A DNA stretch of 61,401 nucleotides, filler included, from Circinaria calcarea (taxonomy: Eukaryota), in assembly GCA_051942165.1 (NCBI GenBank). It is 9 parts of 9 records of this genome, joined end to end, with 100 filler letters (N's around TTAATTAATTAA, not from the genome) between each part and the next. Parts side by side here need not be neighbours in the genome. Positions count along the whole stretch, not along the records: positions 1 to 6,750 come from JAVECS010001501.1; 8 more parts are not named here. The stretch is one strand, 5' to 3'. Position 1 is the stretch's first letter; every line of letters begins with the position of its first letter. A model generated the notes under the pieces. That model made no database searches. It saw only the letters and a program-made list of their open reading frames with translations, and had not been told where the DNA came from. Below, one piece after another: positions 1 through 20,530 of the stretch. The translations under genes and the position numbers were made by a program.

Positions 1-476
1 TCCCACGTTTCGAAGGTGTGCGGCCCATGTTCAGCAAGAAGCCGGTAGGCCTCAATGCATCCCGTACGATGGTCATAACGTGCAAGTACCACCTGCCCAA
101 CCAAAGTGCTTCCGGTATGTGCCTTGTCCGAATACCAGATTTTGTGCTTCGGGAGGAACCAGTAGGGATGATGGGCTTTGTAAAGCTCCCGCCACGTATT
201 GTAATGAAACGGCTGTCTTGGAAGCACAAACAGGTTCTGCGCAACGAACGCAGCCCATAAAAGGTCGTTTTCCGTATGAGAGCGCAGGAGGTGACAGGTT
301 GCCGACGTTGCAAGGAGCGCAGAGGGTGGTAGGTTCCTGAGGATCTGATCAATGATCTCACTGGGCAGCTTCAGCAACGCGGAAATATCCGGGGTCGACT
401 TGGGCATTGCGAGCTGTGGTTCCGGGGGAATACTCGTGGCGGAGGAGAGGGTTAAATAGTTGAGGAGCCTCTCCAT
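1..476 (-). CDS. F-box protein (FBXO31-like fungal family), 3'-truncated at the window edge
   Basis: Manual minus-strand translation from ATG 476 (not in the ORF track): MERLLNY...LLKLPSEIIDQILRNLPPSALLATSATCHLLRSHTENDLLWAAF (F-box), then HHPYWFLPKHKIWYSD and ARYDHRTGCIEAYRL. The frame is open to base 1. An alternative in-frame start lies at 407. Confidence 0.8.
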   Translation of the reverse strand, partial: MERLLNYLTLSSATSIPPEPQLAMPKSTPDISALLKLPSEIIDQILRNLPPSALLATSATCHLLRSHTENDLLWAAFVAQNLFVLPRQPFHYNTWRELYKAHHPYWFLPKHKIWYSDKAHTGSTLVGQVVLARYDHRTGCIEAYRLLAEHGPHTFETW

Positions 477-1757
477 CGTGCCGACCGAACGCTCCACCTG
501 CTGATCTTGGAGCTCCCGCCGTAACTCCGTATGGCGGCAACGATGATGATGAGTAGACTGGCCTCGGCTTATCTTAGCGTATGCTTGTTCATGGGGGTGT
601 TTTTCGAGCAGATGCAATTGGGAAGGTCGAGATTGAAGGGAACTTCCATCTTGAGTTCTACTAGGCGCATTGGGCGTATGGGCCTTCTGCGAAGAGACTG
701 GATGTTGTGGTCGAGCGTCTATGAATGGTGCTGGAGGAGAGCAGTCGGGACGGTTGGTTGGTTCTCTTTCGGAAGGTGAGAGCAAGTGAGGTTGAACGAG
801 AACGATTCCAATCAGATTCCCTTTACGCTCGCACCGATATCGGGCGGAATGGCAAAAGCTCGAGGGACTGGTTTTATTCACTCTGCTCGTACGAACTATA
901 CAAGTTTCGACATAGGTACGCTCGCTAGCCCCTCTTACATTCCGCCCTCACCTTCTTCTTGGGGGATACTGCAGCCTGACTGCATAACGGCTCGGTAACA
1001 TGATTCAGCCTATGGGACCAGCACCCGACATGTTTCTGGGGAGCAGGTCAGACTACACTCAAGAAACTCATTCACATGCTTATGACGGCAGCGACCAGAG
1101 CATAGTTTCTTGCAATGTAGCATGAGGCTAAAGGCAGTGTTTGCATGAGCGGAAAACTGTGCCCGATTTCCAGGCTCTAAAGCCAGCCCTATGATAAACG
1201 AAAACCTCATATCCGCTGTTCCCGTGCAGCTTCGGATGCCATAACAACCCTTGCATAACATAGGTAAAAAAAAAGACTCTAATAGGCGGGAGATGGCTAG
1301 TAGCTTGGCTAGATGTTGCCCTTAAAAACGTGTGAAGCGGACATAGATCCTCCCAAAGGCGCTGTCCGTCATAACCGTTGCGGCTTGTTGACCATATGAA
1401 CCATACTGAAGCTCAAATAAGTAAAAACCCCTGAACCAGACTCCCCTTTCCAGTCACATTTCGTCTAACAGACGTCCAACGCCCTAACTATCCGGATGAT
1501 CCAATATTTGTTAAAATAGTTATGATAATAAATAAGAAAAATTTAATAAAACGTGAATATTTAATGTGAGGCCGTAGGATACTTTATTTGGAAATTACCT
1601 AAGGCGAAGGTATATGGTAATGAGAGGCAGGAAAAGTATATACGAGAACCTATCATTATAGAAGAAGAAATGTGTGCGAGAAAGGTTTTCACTATACGCC
1701 AAGACGCCAACTAAGCGAGGTATCGCCCACCTAAGCGTAGGGCATGACAAAAATAGG

Positions 1758-4700
1758 CTATATACCGGTAGATGTGCTTGTCTGGCTGCGGGACCATGCC
1801 CTAAGCAGTTGCACCACGGCCTCATGCCCCCTCGTAGTTGCCCAATCCAGCGCTGTCCGTCCCTTTATATCTTTAGCCTCGATATCTGCCCCTTTCTCCA
1901 GCAGCAGCCGCACTACGGCCTCGTGCCCGTTAGAAGCTGCCGTATGTAACGCTGTCCATTCCCATTTATTTTTAGCCTTGATATCTGCCCCGTTTTCCAG
2001 CAGCAGCCGCACCACGGCATCATGCCCTTTCAAAACTGCCTTATCCAGCGCTGTTCGTCCCTGTATATTTTTAGCCTCGATATCCGCCCCTTTCTCCAGT
2101 AGCAGCCGCACTACGGCCTCGTGCCCAAAAAAGGCTGCCGTATGCATTATTGTCCATTCATTTTCATTTTTAGCCTCGATATCTGCCCCGTTTTCCAGCA
2201 GCAGCCGCACTACGGCCTCATGCCCCCTTAAAGCTGCCCTATATAACGCTGTCTGTCCGTCTTTATCTTTAGCCTCGATATCTGCCCCGTTTTTCAACAG
2301 CAGCCGCACTACGGCCTCGTGCTCAAAAGAAGCTGCCATATGCAGCGCTGTCCATTTATCTTTATCTTTAGCCTCGATATCTGCTCCTTTCTCCAGCAGC
2401 AGCCGTATTACGGCCTCGTGCCCAGAAGAAGCTGCCTGATATAATACTGTCTGTCCGTCTTCATCTTTAGCATCGATATCTGCTCCTTTCTCCAGCAGTA
2501 GCTGTATTATAGCCTCGTGTCCAGACAAAGCTGCCGCATGCATCGCTGTCCATTTATCTTTATCTTTAACCTTAATATCTGCTCCCTTCTCCAGCAGCAG
2601 CCGTATTACGGCTTTATTCCCCTTAAAAGCTGCCTCATGCAGCGCTGTATGTCCGTTTTCATCTTTAGCATCGACATCTGCTCCTTTCTCCAGCAGCAGC
2701 TGTATTATGGCCTCGTGCCCACCCTCAGCCGCCCAGATCAGCGCCGTCTTTTTCCTGTTGTCGATTTTATTCAGATAAAAAAAGCGCTTCACTTTATTTA
2801 TCGAACCATTTTTAAGAAGAAGATTCTCAGCAAGCGGCAGAATGCCCAGCCACGAAGCTATATGCAATAATGTAAATGAATGTGGTAGAATATAATATTC
2901 TTTTTCAGCCCAATACGTTTTTAGCCAAGACTCTCGAACTGGAGACCTCTTATGGTAGAAGGGAAGTGATAAATCAAAAATGCTTTCGGAACGAGCTAGA
3001 GATCTTGCATGTTCGGGCCAATGGAGTACAGCATACGAAAGCAGTGGGAAGGCTTTCAAATGTGAGGCGTCCGTCTTCAGATTGACCTGACCAGCTGCAA
3101 GAGCGCCGTTTTGCAGGTAGTCCAAACATTTTCTTGCAATCTCAAGGTTCGAAACCTCTTCTTTGACACGGAAAAATTCTAGCTCAGGATTTGAATCACA
3201 GGATTTGCGCAGAAGATAATCCTTAGCCGATTGATGGATAAGGTCGATTTTGTTATCTTTGATTTTTAGAAAGTATCCACAATATGACACTTGGTCTGTT
3301 ATTACTTTATCTCGACTGAAAATACCAGGAGTTCCGACATTGGTCTCAATCGCAACGCTCAGCTCCGAGAGGGTCAAAGGGCGAACAGCCATAACAACCC
3401 AGCGTAATATCCTAGCAGCAATTTCTCGTCGATTGATATCAATCCGGAGTAGCATGCGGGCATATAGTTCATCCAACCCTGATGGGAAAAGGTCCAAGCC
3501 ATTTTCGACTTCGGTCGCTTTGTATTTCTGCAGCGCTTTGGCTACAATTCCTATCCAAAGGAATGTACCTTGCGCACGATTCTGGAAAATTTCTTTCACA
3601 AGTACACGTAATGGGTCCGGGTATTGTTTGCGTGCAGAGAGCTCGTCAACCTTCATCTCGATGAATCGATGAATATCGTTGTTGACATCAGCCTCCGCAT
3701 CCGGATCTAAACGAATGCGAGGGAAGCTTGATAGTAACTCTGGTATAAATTCTGGAAGATCTCGGCTGACAACAATCAAGTTGAGGCGGCAGGCCGACGA
3801 TTCATTGGTTTTCGCAGATAAGAGAGCCGCGAATTTCCCAAGAAGCACTTCTAACAAATCTGCGTCGCATTCGTCGAGACCATCCAGAATGCAATATGTA
3901 GTACCAAGAATAGGATCACAGACCATACTCTCGAATATTTTCCAAAGCGTAGGGAATGATGAACCAGTAAATAGAGATTCCTTTTGTATCTTGAAGCTTG
4001 GTAGGATGTGATTGATTAGTTTCGGGCGTGATTGTAAAAGCTGGAAAATCAGTCCTCTGATAACAGTGACAGCTGTCTTACGTTTCTCGTCCTTGCTATC
4101 GCAGAAGTATTGTAGGAACAATACGTTTTGAGAGTTCTTCGCGGTTCGCTCAAGCTCTTCAGCGAGGAAGATCGAAAGCATGGTTTTACCTTTACCAGGG
4201 CCACCAGACAGCCATAGTAGCTGAGAATGAGAGTGAAGCCACGAAATATATAACTTGTTAGATTTAACCCATTTGCATGTGCCGCTAACTCTTGAGCCTT
4301 TTGCTTGTATAAGCTGCTCTCGGTCGACCTTTGGGTCGGTTAGGAATAGTGCAGTCAAGCAAGTCCCAGGTTCATCTTCCATCAAGCCTTTAAGTATTTT
4401 AATTAGCATTGTATACTAAGTATAGAAACAAAAATATAATAAAAGCTTTAATTTTGATGTAAGAAGCAATCCCATAAAACGTAGATAGCTCGTAAATTGG
4501 CAAAGAAAAAAATTCGCGCTATTGAAACTCAGCGCGTACCGAAGGACATCGCGCCACCACCAGAGTTGTATTGTTGCGCATTACCCTGAGCGACATATTC
4601 CCCCTGAGCATTGTATTGGGTACCCGATCCACTATTTGTATTCGTGAAACCAGTCTCCTGAAACTCATGCTCGGGGACGGAAGGTTGGATAGCCGACACT

Positions 4701-5170
4701 TCTGTAATAGCCTTGACAATCTGCTCTTGTTGATCCTTGGTCGCGGTTTTCATGCCACGTTCACAGGCCAAGAGTTGTACGTCCTCCAGCATTCCTTTCA
4801 TCAAGTTCTCCACTTCATTTCCTTTCCCATATGCCTTGACTGCCTTATAGTATCGCTTTAACCCCGAGGCACCGTCTGTAGAGATGGCCTTGCGGAACAG
4901 ATCATCCAGCTGCTTGGCCTTCTTTTCGCAAGCCTCAACAACGTGCTTCACTCCCTCACACGAATCTCCATCGACATCTCCCCTATTAATATGTTGCTGT
5001 GTTGAACCCAAGATATTGTCGACGATTGGAAGTCGACCTGCGACTCCGCGAAAAGCTTCAGGAAGGCCTTGCGCATTTGTTGCGGCGTCGTAGACTTGCT
5101 TGATCCCATCGACAACTGCAATGATAGACGAAATCACCCCCAATACGGCGATAGCTTCAGCGCCTGACAT
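1758..5170 (-). CDS. Fungal NLR: SesA (HeLo-like) - sigma amyloid motif - NACHT - ankyrin repeats; 2 exons (5170-4540, 4387-1758), 1086 aa when spliced
   Basis: Exon 1 begins MSGAEAIAVLGVISSIIAVVD...GLPEAFRGVAGRLPIV (SesA-type N-terminus). Intron 4539-4388 has donor GTACGC, branch GCTAAT and acceptor AAG, and rejoins in frame (G|GC). Exon 2 has Walker A GGPGKGKT, Walker B YCILDGLDEC, AQGTFLW, LIHQSAKDYL and 10 ANK repeats. Confidence 0.88.
1790..2766 (-). repeat. Ten 99-bp (33-aa) highly similar ankyrin repeat units
   Basis: Repeated GHEAVVRLLLEKGADIEAK with near-identical DNA (tttagcctcgatatctgcccc...ttctccagcagcagccg) at 99-bp spacing. Confidence 0.95.
4538..4651 (-). other. Sigma-type amyloid signalling motif
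   Basis: GFTNTNSGSGTQYNAQGEYVAQGNAQQYNSGGGAMSFG: N/G/Q/S-rich, with a repeated Q-Y-N pseudo-repeat and a terminal FG, directly after the SesA domain. Confidence 0.8.
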
Positions 5171-5932
5171 AATGTGGTTGTGAGAAAATGGTCCAAAGAG
5201 GACGTCCTAGACAGTCCGATTAGCACTAAAAAGAAACACTTGAATGGGTACCTTTACAGGAAATGTCTGAGACTATTATAGATGCGAAGGTGTTGAGACT
5301 GAATACTGAAAGATCAGCGGTAGCGGCCTCGTCCGCCACCAACTTAGATCTAAAAAAGCGGGAAAAGTTGTCGCTTTATGCTTCAAGGACTAGTAAAAGA
5401 GGTAGAAATATTGCAGTGACATCAATACAAATTGGTAGTGCTTCATATATAATATAAAGAGGAAAATCAATGTGGGCATAGCTCTACATAACATAATAGT
5501 AGTAATTCGTGCAAATACTATGGGTGTTGAACCCCTGTAGACCTTGCATACTCTATATGCGTGCTGTGTGTGCGCCAAGTCATAGTAGCTTGAATTGAAT
5601 AGCATGAGGCTGGATCGTGACAGTAAAAGGGTGATAAGGTGTCAGAGAGGATGGGGGATAGCCAATCAGCTTGCTTGTGGGCCAAGGCTGAAGGTGCCAG
5701 CCAAGCTTGAGATGTTGACTGATTGGCACGTAAGCGAGCCAATGAACTGCCAAGTGAAGCGCAAAATATGTGGCTTATGAGTTTTTTATTTACAGAGTAA
5801 AGAATAGACTATCACGTGCTCTTTGAAAGCTGATGGGGGGAGTCCTAAAGGGGACTAGAATAGACCACAATGGCTGTAAAATGAAAGTAAGTTCTTCGTA
5901 CGCCCCGCATACTCAGATCCGCCCTGTATTAA

Positions 5933-5972
5933 CCGTACCCGACTAAGCTTCCGGAGGCTTAGTCGGGTACGG
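5933..5972. repeat. 40-bp near-perfect palindrome
   Basis: CCGTACCCGACTAAGC-TTCCGGAG-GCTTAGTCGGGTACGG: perfect 16-bp arms, and the centre contains the palindrome TCCGGA. Confidence 0.9.
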
Positions 5973-6603
5973 GTATGGTATGTTGTCTCTGTGAATGGAG
6001 ATAATACAGAGTAGCGCAAGTAAACCCACAACCTCCTGCAATGTCTTCAAGACGGAACCCCAAACAGCCGTCAGGCGCGCTGTCACGTGGGGACGCTCCT
6101 CCCGACCAAATCGACTCAGCTTCTCATCCTTCTTTCAACCCATGCCCCCAATACAGTAAAATTGTCGCTCGGTCATGAACTTGGATCAGGTAAACCATCT
6201 GACCTATTGAAATGACAAAATCCCTCGAAAATGATTCTTGTCGAGGGAGTAGCTGCCTGGAGTTTGAAACCACAAGATCCAATTAATCTTGTTTTCTCGG
6301 CGCGAAGATCGCGTTTTCTTATCTTAGCGCTAACTGGGGAGGGTTTTGGACCGGGGTGCTTCTGTTTGTTTACACTGTGTTGAGTTTTATATGGTAGCCT
6401 GCTGCCTACCACAAACACATGATTTGAGTCACGTATCATCACCGTGTTTCTCTCATATCCAATTCTTCTTCAATGAGAATTCTCTCAATTCTCCTACAAC
6501 AGTCGAACTACGTGACTGGAATTATTCCTCTTCAAGCTTGAATGTAAACAAGCAGCAACGCTTTATTACGTCCAATCTCTTCAACATATATATTGGTTTG
6601 GAG

Positions 6604-6750
6604 ATGACTAAATCTATGCACCAGCTCACCCAAGACGACTTGGACGATGATAGACCCATCGCGGTGCGTCGAAAGAGGCGCATGAGCACAGCACTGGCGA
6701 GCCCCCATCGAGAAACTCAAGCCAACTCTTCTGATCGAGGAGCACCAAAT
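6604..6750 (+). CDS. Probable 5' end of a hypothetical protein, cut by the contig end
   Basis: MTKSMHQLTQDDLDDDRPIAVRRKRRMST..., open up to the gap. Confidence 0.4.
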
Positions 6751-6850
6751 NNNNNNNNNNNNNNNNNNNNNNNNNNNNNNNNNNNNNNNNNNNNTTAATT
6801 AATTAANNNNNNNNNNNNNNNNNNNNNNNNNNNNNNNNNNNNNNNNNNNN
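6751..6850. other. Artificial contig-joining spacer
   Basis: N44-TTAATTAATTAA-N44 (stops in all six frames). Confidence 0.98.
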
Positions 6851-7463
6851 CCCCCCCCCCCCCCCCCCCTCTTCCTCTAAAACCGCGTAAAAACGGACGA
6901 TAGACATCTAATCTCATCTTCTTCGTCCCCACACCCTATGACGCCAAGTAAACCAGATCTCCCCATACCCAATGTCCCTCAGATCTGATCAATTTCTCTA
7001 CCAGCCGGGCGATGATGGGGGAGAGGTGAAGCTGGCGGGCAATGAATAAAGCTCTGATATTGGTCACAAGGCTTCCCGCCTGCGTAGCCGGGGAGGTTGT
7101 TAGGTTTCTGGGGTTGAGAAGGAAGCGCGGGTGGTTTTGCAATTGGATGAGGTTACGGTTCCCATGCTGCGTCTTGGTACTGGGAAGGCTCGTTTGCGTG
7201 TGTCGGGGTGAGCAGGGTTTTGCTGATGGGAGGGGGATATGGAAGGGGGGCCGGTTGGAGAGGTGGTGGATTTGTGGAGATGGTTCTATGGGGGTCTTAG
7301 CTTTTCCTGTGTAGAGTAGAGCGGGTCTGGATGTTATTGGCGTGCTTACCGTGGATGTGTGACTCAGTGTGAAGAAAAGATTTACGCAAGGATATCAAGG
7401 AATTCCTTGCCGATCAGGGGCAACCAAGGATCCTGTCGAGAGATGTGCAGCGATATCCTTTCC

Positions 7464-8346
7464 TCATCTCCTCCGGTCATCTCTTCTATCGCTGTGTCTG
7501 TCTCTCCGTTGAGGATCTGGCGAATAGCTGCGACGACGGGGCCTCCTGGATGAGTATTCGTCTTCTCGACGTCGTTCGTAGCTCCGCGATCTTAATCGCC
7601 TCTTTGTGATTCTGTCCCTCGACCTCGAACGATGCCGCCGATGTAATCGATGATGATCTTCGTCATGCCTCCGGCGATGGCGCCTACTCGATTCTCTCTC
7701 CCGACTAGTATCAGCCCTCCTCTTTGCCCGCTTCGCCGCTCCGCCTTCCAACCCTCCCTTCTCCCCGACATAGCCCATCAATCTCTCGCTGGTGTCTGCT
7801 TCCGCTTTTGCCGGACCGACGTACGCTCCAAACCCAACCCCTTTTCCCCCTTCTTCCTCATCTTCTCCCGTCTCCCTGATAGCTTTCTCCACCTCCTTTG
7901 GTCCCGCCAACTGGTTATCCCTGATTCGTGGTTCTACAGTGAAACCGAGAGCGGCACTTAGAGCATCCTGTTCGGCCTCCTTGATCCTTTTGATTTCCTC
8001 AGCGCGCGCTTTGGCGGCGTCTTGGGCGGCTTGCGAATCGTCGCCTTTGGCGTACCAGGAGAGGTCTTTGTTCTTTTGCCAACGACCGACGGCTAGAAGT
8101 TCAGGACCGAGTCAGCTTCTGCTTCGATTGTGATTCCTCGGATAGGAGCAGCGAGAGTAACGTACGGGCCATGAGGGAGTGGCCGAGGTAATTCTCGCGG
8201 TGCTGGTCATCTTTGACATCTTCCCACTTGAATTCGGCGCGGCCTCCACTGTTTGTTGAAGCAGGTTAGCAGGAGTGGTTTGGACGATCACCGGACAAGA
8301 GTACATACCGGCTACCCTCCTTTCGCACACCAGCTACCAGATCCAT
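7464..8346 (-). CDS. MMTAG2-like protein; 3 exons (8346-8309, 8248-8166, 8092-7464)
   Basis: Spliced translation [56 protein letters not shown]..., with an RS/RD-rich tail. Introns GTATGT..CAG and GTACGT..TAG. Confidence 0.9.
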
Positions 8347-8785
8347 GGCTTGTAATCACCGCTTTTCTTTAACGTACAATATCCAATGCAAATATAGAAA
8401 GTACAATCCCTGTACTCTTCGTACCGTCTTTAAGCGCGCTTGGAAATACTACTGAAGAGGCGTGTTTATGGAATACGACGTAGTAACGTCTTTTTCTAGT
8501 AGCACTACGGAGCACTGAGCCAGATGAGGAACCCTAAGCGATAAAAACTATTCTAAGCATCTGTCTAGCGCTTATCTCGGGAAAAGCTGCCGCGATAAAC
8601 TCGATGACCCAAAATTCGCCGAACCAAATCTCATCAACGTGACAAAACCTCGCAAAGGGCAATCACCAAAGCGACAGTAGACGAGCCGTGAGATGATAGC
8701 CTAACCTGCTACGGAATTTGGAAGCAATTACGAGGTACCGGGACCATCGTCACTTCGTCCTCGACCCACAGTAGGCTTTAGCAGC

Positions 8786-13590: not shown

Positions 13591-13690
13591 NNNNNNNNNN
13601 NNNNNNNNNNNNNNNNNNNNNNNNNNNNNNNNNNTTAATTAATTAANNNNNNNNNNNNNNNNNNNNNNNNNNNNNNNNNNNNNNNNNNNN
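13591..13690. other. Artificial contig-joining spacer
   Basis: N44-TTAATTAATTAA-N44. Confidence 0.98.
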
Positions 13691-20430: not shown

Positions 20431-20530
20431 NNNNNNNNNNNNNNNNNNNNNNNNNNNNNNNNNNNNNNNNNNNNTTAATTAATTAANNNNNNNNNNNNNN
20501 NNNNNNNNNNNNNNNNNNNNNNNNNNNNNN
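20431..20530. other. Artificial contig-joining spacer
   Basis: N44-TTAATTAATTAA-N44. Confidence 0.98.

Follow-up and report, generated by a model that had tools for sequence, protein, structure and literature searches.

Circinaria calcarea carries, on the minus strand at positions 1758 to 5170 of a 61,401-nucleotide (nt) stretch of its genome assembly GCA_051942165.1 (the window), a gene for a fungal nucleotide-binding oligomerisation domain (NOD)-like receptor (NLR) of the signal transduction ATPases with numerous domains (STAND) type, in which a NACHT NOD and C-terminal repeats are preceded by an N-terminal SesA effector domain. Exon 1 of this gene alone is a complete open reading frame (ORF) for a free effector, with a conserved stop codon two codons into the following intron. 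The chances appear evenly poised that the single NLR gene also yields a free 213-amino-acid (aa) protein of SesA domain and motif, which the long form would template, so that one gene would supply both receptor and effector. Somewhat short of even, and therefore put forward tentatively, is the broader proposal of a selected, family-wide stop-in-intron switch in NLR genes of Pezizomycotina, by which one gene would give receptor and effector with identical motifs in a ratio set by splicing or early polyadenylation. What appears to be new here is the conserved position of the stop inside the intron.

In the proposed mechanism, spliced mRNA would give the receptor of 1086 aa, and unspliced or early-polyadenylated mRNA would give the 213-aa SesA protein with the same motif at its C terminus, like a canonical free SesA. 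A ligand sensed by the ankyrin (ANK) repeats would lead to NACHT oligomerisation, which would gather the long-form motifs. The cross-beta nucleus formed in this way would then template the tails of the short form and amplify SesA-mediated membrane damage. We infer three things: the production of both proteins, amyloid formation by the motif, and templating of the short form by the long one.

Gene structure and the stop codon within the intron

The coding parts of the locus, and the intron between them, are arranged as follows.

4529..5170, minus strand: SesA ORF of 213 aa, with ATG at 5170 and TGA at 4531-4529 (ORF list).
1758..4409, minus strand: NACHT-ANK ORF of 883 aa (ORF list).
4540..5170, minus strand: exon 1, comprising the start codon, SesA domain, linker and sigma-like motif, and ending after the first base of Gly211.
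4769..5134, minus strand: SesA domain, residues 13-134 (PF17107, 3.5e-38, model positions 1-122 of 122).
4540..4630, minus strand: sigma-like G/N/Q/aromatic motif GSGTQYN...GGGAMSFG, which ends at the exon boundary (motif scan).
4388..4539, minus strand: phase-1 intron of 152 nt, with 28.9% G+C against 47.2% for the exons.
4534..4539, minus strand: 5′ splice site GTACGC, with C at +6.
4529..4531, minus strand: in-frame TGA two codons past the split Gly, with a purine as the next base; it ends the 213-aa unspliced reading.
4447..4452 and 4398..4403, minus strand: ATTAAA hexamers in the intron (regular-expression search), speculative candidates for poly(A) signals of a short transcript.
4402..4406, minus strand: branch-point-like CTAAT, 15 nt before the acceptor, read from the sequence.
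4388..4389, minus strand: 3′ splice site AG, the first AG past the branch-like site.
1758..4387, minus strand: exon 2, comprising the NACHT NOD, winged helix, ankyrin repeats and stop codon.
3762..4283, minus strand: NACHT-type NOD (NPHP3_N PF24883, 3.3e-35; NACHT PF05729, 29.4 bits, cut-off 26.7).
3189..3428, minus strand: winged-helix domain GPIID_WHD (PF22939, 9.2e-09).
1869..2867, minus strand: nine ankyrin repeats (Pfam), with high DNA similarity among the repeats.

Splicing at these coordinates gives a protein of 1086 aa with no internal stops, identical to P0001, the protein model deposited for the window sequence, which its source labels as belonging to a metagenome-assembled genome (MAG) of a lichen fungus. 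The intron splits a Gly codon in phase 1 (G at 4540, GC at 4387-4386), and no GT-AG solution other than the interval 4539-4388 preserves the conserved NACHT N terminus. When the intron is retained, translation reads Gly-Thr-Arg-TGA. An earlier note on this DNA had joined the 213-aa SesA ORF and the 883-aa NACHT-ANK ORF in frame into 1086 aa, had placed the donor inside the last codon of the motif, and had held that retention adds Thr-Arg before a stop at 4529; every coordinate it gave was recovered, the stop being the TGA at 4531-4529. Both exons are open across the 1086 codons, all domains score well and the splice signals are intact.

Two further features of the intron were considered. A second in-frame AG lies 12 nt past the acceptor (4376-4387) and would give a 164-nt intron and a product without Gly-Leu-Met-Glu; it is not the first AG and is a possible minor acceptor. 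A hairpin that would hide the donor (GCGCG/CGCGC) was rejected, with a minimum free energy of -16.2 kcal/mol, a z score of +0.45, and 134 of 200 shuffles folding equally well or better.

The SesA domain is HeLo-like, a putative membrane-targeting cell-death domain. An AlphaFold model (pLDDT 65.6) forms a helical bundle over residues 1-160, and a Foldseek search of the PDB with the SesA model gave no match at E<=0.001. VIA matches of the same model included MLKL (Z 9.1 and 8.6), plant coiled-coil (CC) domains (Z 6.8-9.3) and HET-S (Z 6.3), all within noise for helical bundles. These fold searches neither confirm nor exclude the kinship of SesA with HeLo and MLKL reported in the literature. The 213-aa unspliced product has the size of canonical free SesA: in Nectria haematococca the ORF counts 210 codons, and a poly(A) site of its own follows the stop by 141 bp (PMC516043). 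The same paper reports a Gly-to-Glu change close to the end of SesA that abolishes function (PMC516043).

Residues 166-213, which follow the helical SesA bundle, are predicted to be disordered (pLDDT <50) and contain the motif. The sigma motif is defined, in the relevant part of PMC3321046, by three copies of motif A (GxGxQFNxx) and/or motif B (GGTQNINT). By eye, the window motif has one clean copy of motif A (GSGTQYNAQ) and two degenerate ones (GNAQQYNSG and GGGAMSFG). Its location, and the phase-1 intron at which it ends, are those of the canonical sigma motifs in the related loci L014 and L024. We describe it as a diverged, sigma-like motif, presumably of amyloid type.

In the translated NACHT domain, GGPGKGKT was assigned by eye as the P-loop (Walker A). 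The ankyrin repeats form a 99-nt tandem array at window positions 1804-2721 (8.8 copies, 76% matches; 82% at period 198; Tandem Repeats Finder), and such high internal conservation is typical of fungal NLRs. An antisense ORF of 231 aa at 1744-2439 on the plus strand is a by-product of this array.

Conservation of the stop among relatives

The position of the stop is conserved among small homologues of the unspliced product (117-373 aa, the best 120 of 447 matches), most of which are exactly 213 aa long. In 113 of these 120 proteins the stop falls exactly two residues past the split Gly (111 counted by regular expression, P0127 and P0147 by eye). One of the remaining seven ends after three residues, three run on for 6-18 residues, and three are truncated, diverged or spliced. 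Among the 111 proteins counted by regular expression, which group into 34 clusters when the identity is set to 80% and into 14 when it is set to 70%, the tail begins with K in 87, T in 10, R in 8, M in 5 and E in 1, where K, T, M and one reading of R are compatible with codons that form GTANG donors. The second residue is D in 96, E in 8, N in 5 and H in 2.

At the DNA level we compared ten distinct loci with this donor, namely the window, L001, L002, L003, L005-L009 and L011 (L012 duplicates L011). All ten have T at intron position +9, G or A at +10, A at +11 and a purine at +12. The bases on either side are variable: positions +6 to +8 read GAC, AAA, CGT or CGC, and from +13 onward the commonest base accounts for about half. 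The pattern from +9 to +12 marks a stop codon set in a context favourable to termination, rather than a nucleotide motif. From base composition, we estimate that any given codon of such an intron is a stop in about 7% of cases. In L011 the motif is two residues longer, and the stop is still the third codon after its own donor.

The donors themselves point the same way as the conserved stop. Lys is encoded by AAG in six loci and by AAA in three, so that in the latter the donor +5 G, which is normally well kept, has been given up and the Lys retained. The usual T at +6 is found in none of the ten intron-1 donors and in seven of eight donors of downstream introns. A wider family search gave 1172 matches, of which the best 150 were taken; 85 of these are 185-300 aa long. 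Among these 85 representatives of clusters at 50% identity, Gly-Lys followed by one or two residues stands at the end of 22, against about two expected from dipeptide frequency. The earlier note had proposed surveying homologues for the intron position and an early in-frame stop; the position of the stop proves to be conserved, in 113/120 proteins and in 10/10 loci with this donor.

Fused relatives, other motif carriers and rival readings

A scan of metagenome contigs, made with an alignment of the small homologues, gave 29 loci. L002, L006 and L009 each have a NACHT exon downstream on the same strand (tblastn E<=1e-139); the same position is taken in L001 by NB-ARC (2.2e-08) followed by ankyrin repeats. 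L003, L005 and L007 end at contig ends and look consistent with a downstream NOD; L008 is uninformative. Annotated fusions of SesA, motif and NOD come from many genera of ascomycetes, among them Pseudogymnoascus, Venustampulla echinocandica, Alternaria alternata and Xylographa/Lobaria, and match all 213 residues of the query at 64-82% identity. In most relatives there are two introns between motif and NOD, and these enclose an in-frame mini-exon, 45-54 nt long, that contains no ATG (57/45/87 nt for intron, mini-exon and intron in L002), and the mini-exon peptide is present in the annotated proteins P0006, P0010, P0014 and P0015. As the mini-exon lacks an ATG, it is translatable only within a fusion. 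These findings uphold the single gene of the earlier note, through downstream NOD exons in four related loci and the ATG-less mini-exon of the relatives, and on this comparison the locus is best read as one SesA / sigma-like / NACHT / ANK gene, not two.

It is improbable that the locus is instead two genes, a free SesA ending at 4529 and a bare NACHT-ANK gene starting from the ATG at 4409 or 4382, with the 1086-aa fusion an artefact of prediction. Each ORF is complete with its own ATG and stop, the 213-aa form appears as a gene in some annotations (P0085, P0114), and free SesA genes can have a poly(A) site to themselves, as in N. haematococca (PMC516043). However, the candidate ATGs lie only 120-147 nt past the stop, and no start codon is conserved in the NOD exon among relatives (in L002 there is no Met ahead of the conserved Cys-Leu segment). 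The conserved in-frame mini-exon would have no place in a two-gene arrangement, the phase-1 join is kept with both NACHT and NB-ARC partners, and a NACHT-ANK protein that lacked both motif and effector would be left with no output domain.

The mini-exon (L002:5632-5820; also L005, L006, L007, L009, L014 and L024) lies between two phase-1 introns. Its peptide is strand-like, with polar and hydrophobic residues in alternation, and occurs in the long product only. A mini-exon within the window intron was considered and rejected, as every two-intron solution removes the conserved NACHT N terminus. The window lineage has lost the mini-exon, and in the annotated lichen relatives P0003, P0004 and P0012 the motif is likewise joined directly to the NOD. 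Between L001:1309-4227 and the window at 1758-5170, exon 1 is 82% identical and the body is NB-ARC-ankyrin instead of NACHT; L005 also looks NB-ARC-like. Comparison of these two loci with the window suggests shuffling of an exon-1 cassette at the phase-1 intron.

Several members of the family are degenerate or rearranged. In L004:5001-5654 SesA is broken by an internal stop, and both donor and NOD are missing; L011 and L012:5001-6300 are followed only by broken NACHT remnants. P0002 (586 aa), a paralogue from the same source as P0001, has SesA, about the first two thirds of the motif and then an unrelated C-terminal part without NOD; in P0005 and P0007 the motif breaks off at that point too, and NB-ARC follows. 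P0170 (373 aa) is a single ORF in which the first third of the motif is joined to ..IFKGLM.., matching the 3′ end of the window intron and the start of exon 2 (..ILKGLM..), and could be a deletion allele or an alternative splice form. Among the predicted proteins compared here that run from SesA to NOD in one ORF, none has an intact motif: it is cut at about two thirds in P0005 and P0007 and at one third in P0170, and P0016, P0017, P0019, P0021, P0024, P0029, P0030 and P0032 are single-ORF SesA-NOD proteins without the motif. A link between single-ORF fusion and a broken motif is only a lead, which depends on the gene callers used.

In relatives, the motif also occurs on proteins that could act in trans. 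At L024, an esterase like SesB (2909-4254, minus strand) is divergent from a fused SesA-sigma-mini-exon-NACHT-ANK gene (5001-8754, plus strand). The esterase matches DUF676 (2.3e-06), and its separate last exon ends in a PF17106 sigma motif (1.2e-07) with the same Gln-Asn-Leu-Tyr-Phe ending as the fused gene. L024 is a textbook ses-like cluster and has the two-component arrangement. Two NACHT-ANK proteins annotated in a lichen fungus, P0056 and P0057, have no SesA domain: they open with the first few SesA residues and pass directly into a sigma-like motif of the window's clade. They may belong to the receptor type, which needs a free effector, or the domain may have been skipped in their gene models. 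Judging by L024, P0056 and P0057, the motif within a fused receptor can probably signal in trans in relatives.

The surroundings of the C. calcarea gene are more limited. The window is made of joined contigs of about 6.75 kb, with runs of N at 6751-6850, 13591-13690, 20431-20530 and so on, every ~6.84 kb, and with paired runs of 44 N. Only positions 1-6750 (JAVECS010001501.1) are physically linked to the SesA-NACHT-ANK gene; since the contig ends at 6750, genes past that point are not its neighbours. One other gene lies on this contig.

3..947, minus strand: F-box ORF (F-box-like, 1.7e-08), downstream of the NLR gene, which runs off the contig end.

The 6.75-kb contig showed neither another sigma-like motif nor another effector gene, and the 10.6-kb locus L002 showed no second motif. 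A two-gene amyloid cluster has the motif on both an adjacent effector and the NLR; the C. calcarea locus has one gene and one motif copy in 6.75 kb.

Against this background, a serious though less probable possibility is that the gene is an ordinary all-in-one NLR. The intron would be constitutively spliced and only the 1086-aa protein would matter; the motif would recruit effectors encoded elsewhere or be a relic, and the early stop would only limit harm from occasional unspliced transcripts, which would yield a short and harmless product or be degraded. In favour of this reading are well-formed splice signals, a deposited model that is the fused protein, and fused homologues annotated across many genera. 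The architecture of effector, motif and NOD is in print, listed as "4 HeLo-like + NLR28" (sigma) in the portion of PMC9815663 on this subject, and the earlier note had likewise stated that effector-motif-NOD fusions are known as an architecture. Quality control of this kind needs a stop anywhere in the intron, yet the position is kept in 113/120 proteins and 10/10 loci while its neighbours vary. The donor is suboptimal at +6 throughout and at +5 in three loci, the linked 6.75 kb holds no other carrier of the motif, and the explanation itself implies that unspliced mRNA is translated often enough for selection to act on it.

A number of observations nonetheless weigh against a gene that makes both receptor and effector, and several of them favour the ordinary all-in-one NLR. 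mRNAs with a long 3′ untranslated region (UTR), or with an intron downstream of the stop, are typical substrates of nonsense-mediated decay (NMD). The intron-retaining mRNA would have a 3′ UTR of ~2.8 kb, in relatives there is also a spliced intron downstream of the stop, and NMD is generally expected to remove such a retained-intron transcript. The fused gene at L024 has a separate sigma-bearing effector adjoining it. The Thr-Arg tail of the window departs from the Lys/Thr-Asp of the family, as Arg is the second residue in none of the 111 tails counted by regular expression. The count of 113/120 takes the gene callers behind the small homologues to be blind to introns, which is an assumption, and the DNA sample is small (ten loci, some of them related). 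In a distant clade with canonical sigma, separate effectors and the same intron position the stop comes later, eight residues past the Gly in L014 and six in L024; the immediate stop is therefore not universal. L010, a free SesA-sigma gene, ends in FGKEDD, encoded with GGC-AAG and without a donor, so the Gly-Lys-acid tail is in part an inherited protein feature. The same tail suggests a route of origin: the Gly-Lys codons GGT AAG of a free effector could have become a donor that captured the exons of a neighbouring receptor.

The motif is a further point on that side. PF17106 (NACHT_sigma; cut-off 27.6 bits) gives no match to the window motif even at E<=10. Six of eight close homologues score weakly at 11-18 bits, two of them over nearly the whole model, and L006 and L011 have no match; the canonical controls all pass (L014 at 39 bits, L010 at 35.7, L020 at 34.8 and the L024 neighbour at 32.2). 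The sigma label that the earlier note had used is right only in part, with the window motif undetected by PF17106 and close relatives below threshold. The HMM scan that it had outlined matched SesA, NACHT and ankyrin and left NACHT_sigma (PF17106) unmatched. It is most improbable, in our view, that the window copy is decaying or inactive and its features inherited leftovers. The atypical tail and the missing PF17106 match, where six close homologues score at least weakly, would fit decay, as would the degenerate members L004, L011 and L012 and the paralogue P0002 with its truncated motif and unrelated tail. Against decay stand the 1086 open codons, the well-scoring domains and the intact splice signals.

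Known systems and meaning

The dual-product gene proposed here most closely resembles the ses locus found in Nectria haematococca (SesA, SesB, HET-eN). There, as in C. calcarea, a SesA effector of about 210 aa has a C-terminal G/N/Q/aromatic motif, and a motif of the same kind adjoins a NACHT-ANK receptor. In the ses locus, however, effector and receptor are separate genes with a motif copy each, whereas here there is one copy in one gene with the stop inside the intron, and the window motif is diverged and undetected by PF17106. The proposed templating step follows the same logic as in HET-S/NWD2 of Podospora anserina, where, in the account given in part of PMC5485727, NLR oligomerisation nucleates an amyloid that templates the C-terminal motif of a HeLo-type pore former. 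HET-S/NWD2 differs in having HRAM motifs, two genes and an effector with two repeats, and in being experimentally shown, whereas the present system is proposed from sequence.

The long product has the architecture of all-in-one receptors that combine a HeLo-like or SesA domain with a NOD, such as the rare combinations of effector, sigma and NOD, of which "4 HeLo-like + NLR28 (sigma)" cases are given in section 23 of PMC9815663. All-in-one and two-gene designs are discussed as alternatives in passages of PMC3321046 and PMC5485727. In the relevant passages of PMC9815663, PMC3321046 and PMC5485727 the all-in-one receptors are treated as single proteins, with no mention of an intron stop or a short isoform. 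Among fungal NACHT-ANK receptors, the genes with codon-sized mini-exons of Tuber melanosporum, as cited in parts of PMC9815663 and PMC4986451, also let a choice in splicing change the product; that splicing diversifies the C-terminal repeats, in contrast to the junction of effector and receptor, which it leaves unaffected.

The nearest mechanistic parallel comes from plants, where one NLR gene can give a full receptor and a short N-terminal product. Tobacco N and Arabidopsis RPS4 give truncated N-terminal isoforms by intron retention. Unlike the product proposed here, the short forms of plant NLRs are TIR or CC(-NB) fragments and are not known to carry an amyloid templating motif, and we know of no conserved stop directly at the donor in plant NLRs. 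Premature termination of plant NLR transcripts is controlled by FPA, according to the part of PMC8116057 on that subject.

The earlier note knew of no described splice-switch version, and our full-text literature searches likewise found no stop in an intron or splice switch at an effector/receptor junction in the passages retrieved; the supplements of PMC9815663 list proteins of effector, motif and NOD and may bear on this. In the fungal NLR and amyloid papers found by full-text search the term "intron retention" has no occurrences, and the passages retrieved from PMC4518210, PMC12258605, PMC12881547, PMC4986451 and PMC13449251 also contain no stop-in-intron arrangement.

In the current view of fungal amyloid signalling, receptor and effector are two genes whose motifs must co-evolve, and the all-in-one receptor is an alternative design. 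If the dual-product reading is true, one motif copy would end up in both forms, which would bridge the two designs and remove the problem of co-evolution. A cell-death pathway would in addition gain a point of post-transcriptional control. Annotation pipelines call such a locus either as a 213-aa gene or as a fusion, which blurs the counts of free effectors and of NLR architectures. In evolution, effector and receptor genes could fuse or split by way of a splice site in the last codons of the effector.

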